Assembly: GCA_964016885.1 (NCBI GenBank)
Contig: OZ024750.1
Location: 37,324,001-37,388,000 of the forward strand
DNA length: 64,000 nucleotides
Reading direction: 5' to 3'
Source of the DNA: Eledone cirrhosa
Lineage: Eukaryota
Shown piece by piece: positions 525 to 13,864 of the stretch. Position numbers and translations under genes: made by a program. Within the stretch, counting starts at the first letter, position 1. The number at the start of each line of letters is the position of its first letter. The notes beneath the pieces were generated by a model, which was not told where the DNA came from, did not search any database, and was given only the letters and a program-made list of their open reading frames with translations.

Positions 525-1088
525 GAGTTAAAGTTTGATTTATGATCTTTCAGGTTGAAGTGTGGTCTTTTCAATGCCAAAAGTTCAGTTCTATCTTCAA
601 TATTTAGTTTATTCACTATGTTGTGTGTTTTGTTGTTGATGTTGGTGAGTGACGCATTATTAGTTTTTCTATAATTTTTCCTGAGTTCTTTATATATGAA
701 CTCATTATAATTTTCAATATCCATGTGATATAAGTTTCCAGTTTTGTCCGAGTGGACATGGATTTTTTTAGACTTTTTTAGGTCCAATAGGGTAGAATCA
801 AGGTCCTTTTGAAAGATAGATTTATACTTCTTAAATTTGAGGTGTTTAATTAAATTAAAAAGGTCTTTCTCAAAGTCTTCAAGTAGAGAGTTGTGTGGTG
901 GATTCTTGTAAGTAGTGAAATCATACATATTTCCTATCTGCATATTTAGATTTTTTATCGAAGTGGTAGGCCCTCCATCTAACTCTTCTGATAAATTGGT
1001 TAGTTTTCTGTATCATAAGGAGTAAGAAGTCATCCTTAGAAGGTATTGGTATATTCTTTAAAGAAGTTCCCAAGTATTGTTTTTCCAT
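525..1088 (-). pseudogene. N-terminal fragment of the PLE ORF (3' tail copy), frameshifted and cut off by the satellite junction
   Basis: ORFs 921-1109 and 518-943 join across a 2-bp loss near 930 relative to the copy at about 6140. ATG of MEKQYLGTSLKNIPIPSK at 1088. Confidence 0.9.
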
Positions 1089-1437
1089 TGTGATATGGAT
1101 AATGGACAAGAGAAAGAGCTCAACTAAATGTATATGGAGTTATAAAATCATACATATATATGTATATACATAAATATAAAATTAACACACATATACAATA
1201 CAAAAATAAGAATATTTCCGTGAAAATAGGAGCAAATTATGTAGATAAATCTACCAAAAGTTTACGGTAGTGTCCAATCCGTATGAAGAACTCAATGTAA
1301 TCCGGATATTATGGAAAGAAGAGATGCATTCAAAAATCACTTTCGGTGAAAGATAAACGGAATACAGAGTCAAGATAAAATATTAAAAAAATAATGAATA
1401 AAACAATGAAACAGTTCCTTATATTAAACAAAAAAAG

Positions 1438-1580
1438 TTCATTATTTAACGATCGTTTCTAGGACATATATGTGTTAGAATTGGCATGCATATTCAAAAG
1501 ATCGATGTACAAACTTATACAAACTATCAAAGAGAATATACATACCATTACATATATATGCTGTCTTCAAAAATAATGAA
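1438..1580 (-). ncRNA. Variant or degenerate type I hammerhead ribozyme in the PLE 5' UTR (copy 1)
   Basis: Minus strand reads TTCATTATTT (stem I, 10 bp) - TTGAAGA - long stem II (CAGCATATATATG...CACATATATGTCCTA) - GAAAC-GATC-GTT - AAATAATGAA (stem I'). The stem III loop GATC is palindromic, as in minimal PLE hammerheads. There is a C.A mismatch at the base of stem II. Confidence 0.65.
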
Positions 1581-1825
1581 GTATATTTATTGATAACAAC
1601 AATTCAAAATTACAGGTCTGTTTGGGAACAGATTTTAAATAGACCAATGAAATACATAAAAATTAATCAAGAAAATACAGTTAGGTGTGTGTATATATGT
1701 AAGTAACTTCGTTCACAGATATGCATAAAAATGTATGTTCATATGCATACGCATGTCGAAAAAGTGTATGTAAATACAAAAATTCAGGGCTAATGTCTCT
1801 GTATGTTTATAATCCACAGACAAAA

Positions 1826-3015
1826 TATACATACATATACATATACATATACACACATATATACACACATATACATACATTCATACACACACACGCATAT
1901 ACACATAAACACACACATACCTACGAACACACACACATATATACACACACACACACACACATACGTATATATTATTATTATAACTATATGGATATTGAGG
2001 CGCACACATAAACACGGCCACGCACACTTACATCTAGATGCAGAATTAAAAGGAGGTAAGGGAGTAAGTAATTAAGGAGGGTGTCAGACTCAGCATATTT
2101 ATAAAAATGTATCTATAAATTTAGAAATAAAAAGAAATATAATAAAAGAAATATAATAAAAACATAAAAAACATAAAAGAGAGACATAAAATATACATGC
2201 ATTATACGCACATTTACACATCCATACGTTCGATACATACATACGTACACACACACACATACACATAGTTAACCTCACGCATATTAACCTGTTTGTATGC
2301 ATATACATAAAAACAAGTAAAACATATATTCATACATATAAATACACACCGATATATATATATATTTATATATATATATATATATATATATATATATATA
2401 TATATATATTTATATATATATACACATATATATATATATATATACATATATATATATATATATATATACACATACGCACAACACACATATATACATATAT
2501 GTACACACACATACACACATACATACACATACATATATATATATATATATGTATATATATATATACATATATATATAAACACATATATATACACACACAC
2601 ATACATATACGTATATATACATACACACACATACCCATGTATATATACACACAACCACACACTCACACACACTCAGACATACATAAATATAGAGACATAC
2701 ATACACATATATATATATATATATATATATATATATATACATATATATATATATACACATATATATATATATATATATATATATATATATATAAAAATAA
2801 ATAAATACACACAGTCAGACAATTATGCACATATATACACCTACATACACATATCTCTACAAATACATATACATACACATACATACATACACATATATAT
2901 ACATATATATATATATAGACAGTCATACACACTTATTTACATGCGCACATATGTATTTTTATACTCACATACAAACACACAAACATACATACATACTTAC
3001 ATACACATACATACA
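1826..3015. repeat. Compound (TA)n/(CA)n/(TACA)n microsatellite with short unique spacers, internal to the PLE unit
   Basis: Direct reading. Homologous to 7043-8157 plus 8946-9060, with different tract lengths. Confidence 0.95.
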
Positions 3016-3199
3016 TCCACGCTTACAAATACGAATAATTATGGGGGGGGGAGATTCAAATTATTAGTGGGAAATAGTAAATATAGGTTTCAAGGAACAT
3101 AGAATATTAATCTGCATTTAAATCATAATATGTGTTTACATAGTAGTGTCAGTATTAGGAAATGATATTTGTAAGAAAGAAGGCTAAATTATGCATTTT

Positions 3200-4035
3200 A
3201 ATATAAGTAGACTATTAATTATAGGTTAATTAAAGTAAAAATAGTTAATATATTAATTTCTAAGGTGTATACTACTTAGGTTTATAATATTTAAATCGGA
3301 ATTTTGAAGTTAAACAGTAGTAGAGTATTAATTATAGCATAACTAAATTAAAAATATTAACATGATGGTATCAATTTTAGGAAATGAATTCATCGGTAGT
3401 AGAATATTAATTATAGGTTAACTAAATTAAAAATTATATATTAATTTCTATAGTATATGTTAATTAGGTTTATAATAATTAAAGCAAAATTTTGTATTTT
3501 ATCTATAGTAGAATATAATTATAGGTTAACTAAATTAAAATTAATCTATATATTTATTTGTAAAGAATATATTAATTAGGTATATATTTAAAAGTTTTTC
3601 TCAGTTTATGATTACATGATATTCTGCAATCCATCTGTATTAGAATTTTAATTTTAAGCTAACTAAATTAAAATTATAGGTTAACTAAATTAAAATTAAT
3701 TTATAAATTAATTTCTAAATTGTATATTAATTAGGTTTGTAATATTAAAAAGTATTTCTCTGTTATTGATTACACGATATTTTGTTATATTTCATCTGGA
3801 AAGGAATTTTAATAAAAGGTTAAATAAACTAAAATTAATCTATATATTAATTTCCAAAGTATATATTAATTATGTTAATAATATTTAAAAGTTTATGATT
3901 ACACGATATTTAATTAAATTAAAATTATATGTTAACTACATTTAAATTAATTTATATATTAATTTCTAAAATATATATTATTAATTAGGTTTATAATATT
4001 TAAATGTTTTTCTCAGTTTATGATTACACGATATA
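3200..4035 (-). repeat. Degenerate tandem sub-repeats (about 100-160 bp) in the PLE 3' UTR, overlapping the ORF end
   Basis: TTATAGGTTAACTAAATTAAAA-like motif at about 3220, 3330, 3411, 3519 and 3674. GTTTATGATTACACGATAT-like motif at about 3604, 3763, 3891 and 4016. Confidence 0.8.
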
Positions 4036-11649: not shown

Positions 11650-12266
11650 TATATGTCTATATATGTATATATATATATGTATATGTATATATATATATGT
11701 ATATGTATATATATGTATGTATATGTATATATATATGTATATATATATATGTATATATATATATATATATATATATATACATATATATATACATATACAT
11801 ATACATACATATATATACATATACATATATATATATACATATATATACATATACATATATATATATATATATACATATATATATATATATATATATATAT
11901 ATACATATATATATATATACATATATATATATATACATATATATATATATATATATACATATATATACATATATATATATATATATATATATATATATAT
12001 ATATATACATATATATATATACATATATATATATATACATATATATACATATATATATACATATATATATATACATATATATATATATATATATATATAT
12101 ATATATATATATATATATATATATATATATATATATATATATATATACATATATATATGTACATATATATATGTACACATATATATATATGTACATATAT
12201 ATATATGTACATATATATATATATGTACATATATATATATATATATGTACATATATATATATATAT
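11650..12266. repeat. Imperfect (TA)n microsatellite of about 600 bp
   Basis: Direct reading. Interruptions switch from TATG type to TACA type near 11755-11780. Confidence 0.97.
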
Positions 12267-12324
12267 AACTAGTATTGAGTACCTCACTTACTGTGGTTAT
12301 CCCCGACTCAACCCGGGACCTACG

Positions 12325-12525
12325 TATATATATATATATATATATGTGCATATATATATATATATATATATATATATATATATATATATATATATATATA
12401 TATATATATATATATATATATATATATATATATATATATATGCATATATATATATATATGTATAGATGTGCATATATATATATATATATATGTGCACATA
12501 TATATATATATATATATATATATAT
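12325..12525. repeat. (TA)n microsatellite with TGTGCA interruptions
   Basis: Direct reading. Same interruption type as 13235-13382, which suggests one tract split by the 12526-13234 insertion. Confidence 0.95.
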
Positions 12526-13234
12526 AAATATAAATTAGCGAGAATCGTTTTCAGCTCAGGAATTAACGAAAATCAACGTCCGATATGTGTGGCAAGCGCT
12601 CGATGAATCATATGAATCAGAGCTACAACATACGTTAAGGGCCAAACACACTGAGATGATGGTTAAACAGATCATCCGCACAATCAAAATCAAAACGACC
12701 AAGTAATTCGGGTCAAACAATAAAAATATATGTGTTGATACTTTCCCGGACCCTGGACTGATGGTAAAATCCAGTATTGGTTTCTGCGACTCCAAATCAG
12801 GTACTGTCCGCCTACATAAAGAATGTTGGGCTTCTGGTGAGATGATGAACAAGGCAGTCGTGGTTTCAACGGGTTTTGCTCCAATATGCTATAGATAGTG
12901 TAGCTATTACTGACCCCTCGTGGGATTCAGCAAGGGAGGTAACACCTCTATTAAGCGAATGATTCAGTTGTGTATTATTGCGAGAATGCAAAATATCACA
13001 AATCGAATTAAAGCTCTCAACAGAATGGTTAAATATAACAGAGCCATTCAACAGTCAATATATGTAACTGAAAAAAATCAATAAAATTAACTGCTCAATA
13101 GCTAGACTCTGGAGATTAATACAAATATAAATTAGCGAGAATCGTTTTCAGCTCAGGAATTAACGAAAATCAACGTCCGATATGTGTGGCAAGCGCTCGA
13201 TGAATCATATGAATCAGAGCTACAACATACGTTA
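12526..13234. mobile_element. Putative non-autonomous element: 597-bp unit with identical 112-bp terminal direct repeats, inserted in (TA)n
   Basis: 12526-12637 equals 13123-13234. Flanked on both sides by TA tracts. Many short hairpins and no credible ORF. Confidence 0.78.
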
Positions 13235-13382
13235 TATATATATATATATATATATATATATATATATATATATGTGCATATATATATATATATATATATA
13301 TATATGTGCATATATATATATATATGTGCATATATATATATATATATATATATATATATATATATATATATATATATATATA
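13235..13382. repeat. (TA)n microsatellite with TGTGCA interruptions
   Basis: Direct reading. Confidence 0.95.
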
Positions 13383-13864
13383 TCACGATAAATTAACGGA
13401 GGCATAGGCCGTCGTTATTCCCTGTAAATAATGTGCTCAAAGGGGAAGAGATCCTGAGCCCTTTAAAATATAATATGTTGAGAAGGTAACACACCAGAGA
13501 GAGATATATAGTGCGTTATCAATAATACAGGGAAAAAACCACCAGTGTATGGAATCTATAACCTATGAAAGGCACGATAATTAAAAATATAAATTAAAGC
13601 GTAAATAAATACCTTTATAACTATATAACACACGTACAAATCCAAAGATATGTTTCACCAGAAAATTTGTTGAAAAAAATGGTCTAGTCTCGGTTCATCA
13701 GCGTGTGTAAGGCCATACATTTCAGACAACACTAAGAGGATTTTACAACATATCTTTGGATTTGTACGTGTGTTATATAGTTATAAAGGTATTTATTTAC
13801 GCTTTAATTTATATTTTTAATTATCGTGTCTATAGTCTGCCTTTCATAGGTTATAGATTCCATA
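13383..13864 (-). mobile_element. Hammerhead-containing pLTR-like fragment of a different PLE or retrozyme family, with an inverted terminal duplication
   Basis: Contains the hammerhead at 13628-13708. 13548-13654 is inverted at 13747-13864 with an 11-nt insertion. No visible similarity to the Naiad-like UTR. Confidence 0.7.
13628..13708 (-). ncRNA. Canonical type I hammerhead ribozyme; predicted cleavage after GUA (between 13635 and 13634)
   Basis: Minus strand reads ACACACG (stem I) - CTGATGA - ACC(G)AGA...TCTGGT (stem II) - GAAAC-ATATC-TTTG-GATTT-GTA - CGTGTGT (stem I'). Confidence 0.92.

Follow-up and report, generated by a model that had tools for sequence, protein, structure and literature searches.

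A proposed start signal common to Hydra-type Penelope-like elements and unrelated non-coding hammerhead repeats in the (TA)n tracts of Eledone cirrhosa

The analysis of a 64,000-nt stretch of the 3.0-Gb genome of Eledone cirrhosa (C10:37324001-37388000, hereafter the window) points to a coding Penelope-like element (PLE) of the Hydra clade and three unrelated non-coding hammerhead repeats that were inserted independently into (TA)n, and which are probably mobilized by a single route, with a common RNA signal recruiting a Hydra-type reverse transcriptase (RT) and twin priming taking place on one RNA. The coding family, A, and the three passengers, B, C and D, lie together with a fragment of another family, E, in a nest at the beginning of the window, which serves only as a convenient sample; its interest lies in the start signal and the rule by which the two ends of an insertion are paired. 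The elements of the nest are as follows:

525..5813, minus strand: A, downstream tandem copy, identified by self-blast and translation; its unit of 5,212 bp comprises the 3' part of the open reading frame (ORF), AT-rich 3' repeats, TA/CA tracts, a hammerhead, the 5' untranslated region and the ORF start, the last being cut at 525 by a duplication breakpoint
5814..11654, minus strand: A, upstream tandem copy, 5'-truncated within the RT region (self-blast, translation)
8160..8945, plus strand: B, non-coding retrozyme with a 591-nt unit; the copy spans one unit and a further 195 nt, lies in a TA tract of A and ends at family site 196
12269..12322, plus strand: E, final 54 nt of another hammerhead-bearing family, the ribozyme motif having been lost through 5' truncation
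12522..13234, minus strand: C, non-coding retrozyme with a 597-nt unit; the copy spans one unit and a further 108 nt and has its fixed 3' end near 12523
13380..13864, minus strand: D, non-coding 541-nt retrozyme, head to head; the main arm (13380-13746) ends at site 378, and the inverted arm (13747-13864), here cut by satellite, is complete in three sister copies of this contig, where it ends at site 290

The units of B, C and D are found in tandems, each with a type I hammerhead, and are non-coding, with longest ATG-initiated frames of 75, 45 and 26 aa and GC contents of 42, 39 and 39%, respectively. All three families are young, the best-scoring copies having a median identity to the reference of 99.3, 98.6 and 99.1%. 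In these characters they work like non-LTR (long terminal repeat) retrozymes, with putative self-cleavage and putative circular RNA. A family-fixed 3' end followed by a TA-type repeat was seen in every independent sampled insertion (19/19 for B, 28/28 for C and 22/22 for D, the sampling queries for C and D having included the fixed 3' end), and the 5' ends vary. Duplicate loci of one insertion were dropped before counting, as were L012, with both ends outside the locus, and L020, with one end outside. Genome-wide, exact TA junctions number 2,715 at site 196 of B and 667 at the 363 form of its other site, 1,093 and 162 at sites 378 and 290 of D, and 930 at the single fixed end of C, and the reversed controls gave zero for each of these sites. 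In 18 arbitrary 10-kb windows, 5.1% of positions lie next to such a repeat, so the TA preference that the earlier note on this DNA had ascribed to the small elements is borne out against a background of about 5%. B and D thus have two fixed ends each and C has one; A has three, at 1375, 1238 and about 1150, and A2, which is another Hydra-type family, younger than A, with a protein of 709 aa and about 49% identity to that of A, has two, one of them placed at 1435 by its junctions. The relative of C termed C' (L045:2190-3100, L201-L220), which is 71% identical to it, has a unit of about 600 nt and the same single fixed end, and is older (91-96% identity).

The template of A, A2, B, C and D carries, just 3' of the fixed ends and hence outside the inserted end, a common signal that consists of UAU or AUA, 1-8 mostly U-rich bases and RCUC (UCUC in C), followed 7-107 nt on by U[U/C]GAGY, which is able to pair with it. 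The signals read in the window are:

1290..1379, minus strand, second copy at 6504-6593: start signal behind the A 3' end 1375
1118..1244, minus strand, second copy at 6332-6458: start signals behind the A 3' ends 1238 and about 1150
8349..8421, plus strand: start signal behind B site 196 (2,715 exact TA junctions)
8513..8542, plus strand: start signal behind B site 361/363, the 363 form of which has 667 exact junctions
13093..13125, minus strand: start signal of the UCUC variant behind the C fixed end, read in the internal unit junction
13435..13474, minus strand: start signal behind D site 290

By chance, 0.8-1.6% of TAT/ATA sites would carry the motif. The unit of A (5,212 nt) has three full motifs and A2 (2,807 nt) has two, all of them at observed ends; B has two, both used as ends, and in D the motif stands at both ends. 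Among families that had no part in the definition of the motif, F4, F4b and F7 carry it at their ends and F6 carries its first half. The upstream site of E was predicted from the motif and then found as a TA junction in three loci (L059, L181 and L185). In the published Hydra elements that we inspected by eye (PMC8557442, file S7), the signal is seen after the hammerhead or before the ORF of Hydra-2_Amil, Hydra-1_Ajap, Hydra-2_Ajap and Hydra-1_Crog, which represent a coral, a sea cucumber and a copepod, and in part in Hydra-1_Obim and Hydra-1_Amil. A literature search, which reached few subscription papers and bioRxiv supplements, found no prior account of the signal.

The second regularity concerns head-to-head insertions, in which the two arms nearly always end at different fixed sites in B, D, A and E alike. 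In B, 23 of 24 pairs overall have one end of each kind: all 12 outward pairs on C1 0-99.5 Mb are mixed, with no 196/196 pair among 100 such ends in a count that is blind to 361-form ends, and so are 10 of the 11 scorable sampled loci, the exception being L029 (363/361), and the single pair in arbitrary windows. For D, seven of eight pairs on C1 0-229 Mb are mixed (p=1.6e-4 against independence; the exception belongs to an older subfamily), as are 10/10 sampled loci, where the query forced one 378 end. Mixed-end arms were likewise observed in A (4/4) and E (2/2). An apparent 290/290 pair of D (L182) was discounted as a later palindromic doubling of a 290/378 insertion. Opposite arms of one B insertion diverge by 0.19%, versus 0.89% between insertions, and three B insertions of 11 (L006, L009 and L013) have arms of which neither nests within the other. 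That the tail is often present on one arm only was already known (PMC3846280; PMC8557442), and the Poseidon protein of Anolis, a predicted dimer, is reported to cut and extend both strands in vitro from two internal start sites (PMC11167929).

The fixed ends, the motif past them and the pairing rule are read directly from the insertions, and they can be accommodated in the following scheme. The GIY-YIG endonuclease (EN) would cut (TA)n on both strands and, since (TA)n is self-complementary, a TA primer would be available at both broken ends. Two RT units, docked at the two signals of one RNA, would prime at the adjacent UAU and copy upstream, and the two cDNAs would be joined head to head, one arm carrying as its "tail" the segment between the two sites. 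All that a passenger would have to carry is the signals, and homology to the helper would be unnecessary. Tandem transcripts would be divided by the hammerheads into units, either linear or circular; arms of more than one unit could stem from a circle or from a linear multimer that was cut incompletely, and the 5' ends of C near the predicted cut (see below) favor a linear multimer at least sometimes. The more specific proposition, toward which we lean somewhat, is that RCUC/GAGY represents an RNA helix conserved throughout the clade, with two or more copies in each RNA, that forms the docking site fixing where each of two RT units starts, and that the ribozyme RNAs parasitize the enzyme via this signal alone.

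The coding partner in this scheme is assigned to the Hydra clade by its predicted protein motifs rather than by a tree, with reference to published accounts in which clade-defining motifs are given and the clade is described as inserting in (TA)n and carrying hammerheads (PMC8557442). An intact relative of A (P0001) has a single ORF of 813 aa with YRDD at 346 and a C-terminal YIG at 707. The A protein further shows RVRWRA at 35, with R for the K of the RWK motif, DKT at 115 and no GxK[FY], as well as a CxCX5C linker at 673, a late CxxC at 771 and CxH at 799; in the EN core, examined for the CCHH configuration, there is no CxxC, two cysteines lying 9 apart in A and a single one being present in A2. 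Pfam gives GIY-YIG at E=0.004, below the cut-off, on the window fragment and nothing on P0001. A also shows the (TA)n insertion and the hammerhead of the clade. A reading of A as a Naiad was dropped against the published clade definitions. Intact frames of 806-813 aa are present in 4 of 20 sampled loci of A, and intact ORFs of 708-709 aa, with copies 98-99% identical, in 4 of 20 loci of A2; pieces of several further Hydra-type families are also present. The earlier note had proposed a search for intact PLE ORFs with matching target preference or shared terminal motifs; intact ORFs are present in A and A2, and the start signal is common to these families and the passengers. In the window itself the ORF of A (6350-4000) has a frameshift and is missing about 64 bp near 5813, and as its copies are broken this copy is not the helper. 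The helper/parasite community envisaged in the earlier note holds with respect to the TA targeting and RNA signal common to coders and passengers and fails for this particular copy of A. The note had also conceded that the link was not shown by the window alone; it is now visible in the common signal past the fixed ends, at the level of Hydra-type coders rather than of single helper-passenger pairs. In 18 arbitrary windows (L183-L200), B-family sequence occurs in 3 and Hydra-type ORF pieces in 6, indicating that both make up a notable part of the genome.

Several observations weigh against the reading of a common RNA signal that recruits a Hydra-type RT. The motif was defined post hoc and then relaxed to UCUC to take in C; the relaxed form also matches three unused TC-repeat places in D, and a second, good-looking motif in C is almost unused as a 3' end (1 exact junction versus 930, counted for one junction spelling). 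C' has GACC for GAGC, F6 is without the 3' strand, and about six other TA-abutting families with readable continuation, including G, lack the motif. Given its post hoc definition, the off-site matches in D, the GACC of C' and the silent second motif of C, the start signal is not sufficient alone. B, C and D have no sequence homology to A or A2, the two coders compared, several more Hydra-type families exist in the genome, and TA-targeting Naiads are listed for five cephalopods (PMC8557442, file S1). As for the pairing rule, the C1 count for B has the blind spot mentioned above, same-kind pairs exist in L029 and in L181 (378/378, in an older D subfamily), the contrast between arms is weak in D (0.62% versus 0.96%), arm identity could stem from gene conversion instead, and no two-armed insertion was found among 28 of C or 20 of C'. 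At C10:37550200-37551350 (L100), family G forms a head-to-head insertion of about 1.1 kb that has a hammerhead-like motif and no RCUC signal; its two ends differ, being separated by about 58 nt, and the family may belong to another PLE clade. Two relationships by descent were also considered and rejected: derivation of B, C or D from A, in the absence of homology (a 49-nt, 82% match between B and A is TG/TA-rich and was taken as chance), and C as the pseudo-long terminal repeat (pLTR) of A2, since C is absent from A2 loci.

The missing homology between passengers and coders, the (TA)n preference of cephalopod Naiads, the shortness of the motif and the unused second copy in C are all compatible with mobilization of the passengers by another TA-targeting retroelement (a Naiad, a Neptune or a long interspersed nuclear element), the motif being incidental or a generic structure by AU-rich priming spots. 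We consider this unlikely, given that the motif stands at all five ends and nowhere else in 8 kb of two coding Hydra elements, recurs in Hydra elements from three other phyla (PMC8557442), and predicted the end of E while being missing in other TA-landing families such as G. If instead the helper is correctly identified but the second arm comes from fold-back or self-priming of the first cDNA rather than from a second DNA end, the variants shared by both arms and the several insertions with one arm nested in the other would be explained, and self-priming has indeed been proposed for inverted Penelope copies (PMC3846280). However, the non-nested arms in three of the 11 B insertions cannot be produced by fold-back of one cDNA, the second arm stops at a fixed site that has a signal of its own, regardless of which of the two arms is the longer, and the Poseidon protein extends both strands in vitro (PMC11167929); fold-back thus appears improbable as the source of the second arm.

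In its strong form the earlier note had made the internal TA tracts of A special landing pads, with helper and passengers physically linked and traveling together. TA tracts are indeed carried by the A unit, in four of four tandem copies, B sits in one of them here, and 13 of 69 passenger loci have A or A2 sequence no more than about 1.5 kb away, versus 4 of 54 arbitrary tiles. However, only 1 of the 69 sampled passenger insertions is flanked on both sides by colinear A, and the B-in-A arrangement, present three times on C10, has a single junction throughout and goes back to segmental duplication. (TA)n covers 4.8% of arbitrary sequence, and the proximity of A and A2 to the passengers follows from all of them sharing targets that cover about 5% of the genome. 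The landing-pad role thus survives locally, for the B of the window, and the strong version is already largely refuted and has very little probability left. The reading that we prefer remains that of independent insertions by Hydra-type enzymes recognizing the common signal.

The hammerheads, from which the earlier note had started, are the following:

1438..1580, minus strand: A hammerhead of the downstream copy, C3U, with the predicted cut between 1448 and 1447
6652..6794, minus strand: A hammerhead of the second copy, also C3U
8193..8280, plus strand: B hammerhead with the U3-A8 core UUGAUAA and a palindromic stem III (UUGAUAA in 117/117 copies seen)
8784..8871, plus strand: second B hammerhead
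12745..12873, minus strand: C hammerhead, a sixth motif overlooked in the earlier note, with U3-A8 core and enlarged stems II and III; the window copy has A9C
13628..13708, minus strand: D hammerhead with the canonical core CUGAUGA (57/57 copies seen)

The five type I motifs of the note were recovered at exactly its positions and, in 525-13864, a relaxed type I descriptor matched these five only, with two matches in 30 resampled controls. Rfam at E<=1 returned no hammerhead, its 88 matches being microRNA models on microsatellite and satellite. The note was also right that stem II is enlarged (38-104 nt) and that the motifs belong to three sequence-unrelated elements, between which blastn at word size 7 finds no match longer than 23 nt. 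Its three core types fare differently. UUGAUAA in B and CUGAUGA in D are fixed in their families, whereas UUGAAGA is not a core type: the core of the A family is CUGAAGA (77/91 motif copies in sampled loci), and UUGAAGA was found in 12 A motif copies, in C10 copies related to the nest of the window. The UUGAAGA of the window is a local C3U change and likely marks a damaged copy. The overlooked sixth motif, in C, adds a further U3-A8 core, a covariant of the canonical pair that is known from Schistosoma elements (PMC4209133). The C family reads UUGAAAA in 33/40 copies, its window copy UUGAAAC, and C' reads UUGAGAA in 20/21. The hammerhead helices of C and C' reach 96.5% pairing, and of their 18 pairs 3 have changed on both sides, in a comparison of two lineages only. 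The CUGAUUUGGA block of C was rejected as its hammerhead core, the actual core lying 80 nt upstream. For 11 of 28 C insertions the 5' end lies at 200-230 of the query, in the region of the predicted cut, for which a pause at the structure could be an alternative cause.

Beyond the nest, the core of the A2 hammerhead is CAGAAGA (U4A) in 27/32 copies seen (L162-L180), and further hammerhead families were noticed in L033, L066, L160 and L186, including related motifs that differ in having C3-G8 or U3-A8. With regard to the RNA form of B, single contigs of 620-621 nt in two sequencing runs have the length of a closed 591-nt path; a tandem repeat gives the same, and they were not used as evidence for circles. 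B also appears at about 99% identity in sequencing runs of two other organism labels, as single low-depth contigs for which related species, transfer and contamination are indistinguishable.

The nest itself is ordinary, a pile of independent insertions into common TA repeats, and its surroundings can be described by two further features:

13865..64000, also 1-524, no strand: satellite of about 270 bp
11649..12268, no strand: genomic (TA)n tract at the 5' end of A, with more tracts at 12323-12525 and 13233-13384

B alone sits within the TA tract of A itself, E, C and D being placed in the genomic TA tract past the truncated 5' end of A. Positions 525-13864 and 5 kb of satellite form a second copy, at 99.5% identity, of the 18,476-bp segment that immediately precedes them, and 525 and 13864 are duplication/satellite breakpoints rather than integration ends. 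The earlier note had placed the nest inside a satellite; satellite does flank the stretch, and this appearance results from the 18,476-bp tandem duplication spanning the edge of the array. Within C10 37.319-37.549 Mb, satellite was found in all sampled stretches except the nest copy of the window, and related E-D-A clusters occur on both flanks of the satellite region. E and D occur together without C at three places, B in A at three and C at two, from which the order of events follows: A, E and D are earliest, followed by insertion of B into A, then that of C, then truncation of D by satellite and finally the 18.5-kb duplication. The inverted arm of D is intact in the three sister copies and interrupted at 13864 in the window. 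In the 270-bp satellite unit, which may have originated from a DNA transposon, there are inverted repeats (self-match 89-283; a 194-nt hairpin at 40428-40621). Just upstream of the sister nest, C10:37296938-37298178 (L094, minus strand) carries a retrozyme-like array of at least five hammerhead motifs at 310-bp spacing.

Two questions become testable in this system, namely how PLE enzymes pick their internal starts and what retrozymes need for mobilization, the genome offering a defined cis signal that unrelated passengers have in common with coders, young insertions by the thousand and a rule of one start per arm. If true, the proposition of a clade-wide docking helix would explain the Penelope tail and the head-to-head arms as twin priming on one RNA and would provide a minimal portable tag for the insertion of RNA into (TA)n.

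Among known systems, A resembles the EN-containing PLEs of the Hydra clade as described in PMC8557442, which lists a cephalopod member, Hydra-1_Obim, in its C-terminal GIY-YIG, RWK-like, DKT, CxCX5C and late CxxC and CxH motifs, its (TA)n insertion, its type I hammerhead and its tandem and inverted copies. It differs from the published Hydra elements, most of which are under 3 kb, in its 5.2-kb unit, internal repeats, TA/CA tracts, stem II of about 100 nt and three fixed ends, and the covered sections of that account make no mention of non-coding passengers or a start signal (PMC8557442). B, C and D resemble the metazoan non-LTR retrozymes in being tandem non-coding units with one type I hammerhead and a GC content below 50% (PMC7229834; 10.64898/2026.07.22.740005). 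For those retrozymes, mobilization by Penelope-like elements has been proposed because the two co-occur and because of homology to pLTRs (PMC7229834; 10.64898/2026.07.22.740005); unlike those, B, C and D (541-597 nt) are without homology to A or A2, are linked to these by a common signal and insertion footprint, and are known from genomic DNA. The two internal starts, their spacing equal to the tail, the extension of both strands and the tail at one inverted arm recall the Anolis Poseidon (PMC11167929) and the Penelope tail (PMC3846280). In the Poseidon account, however, the start site shows no homology to the target and neither strand was seen to be preferred (PMC11167929), whereas here the starts end in UAU/AUA matching (TA)n, the tails measure 88-225 nt and each arm uses one site. 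Finally, the Cercyon elements of Schistosoma (PMC4209133) share the replacement of C3-G8 by U3-A8 and, as in A and B, a short palindromic stem III that suggests folding as a dimer; in contrast to Cercyon, U3-A8 is found here in the non-coding families B, C, C' and F4, and stem II is far longer.

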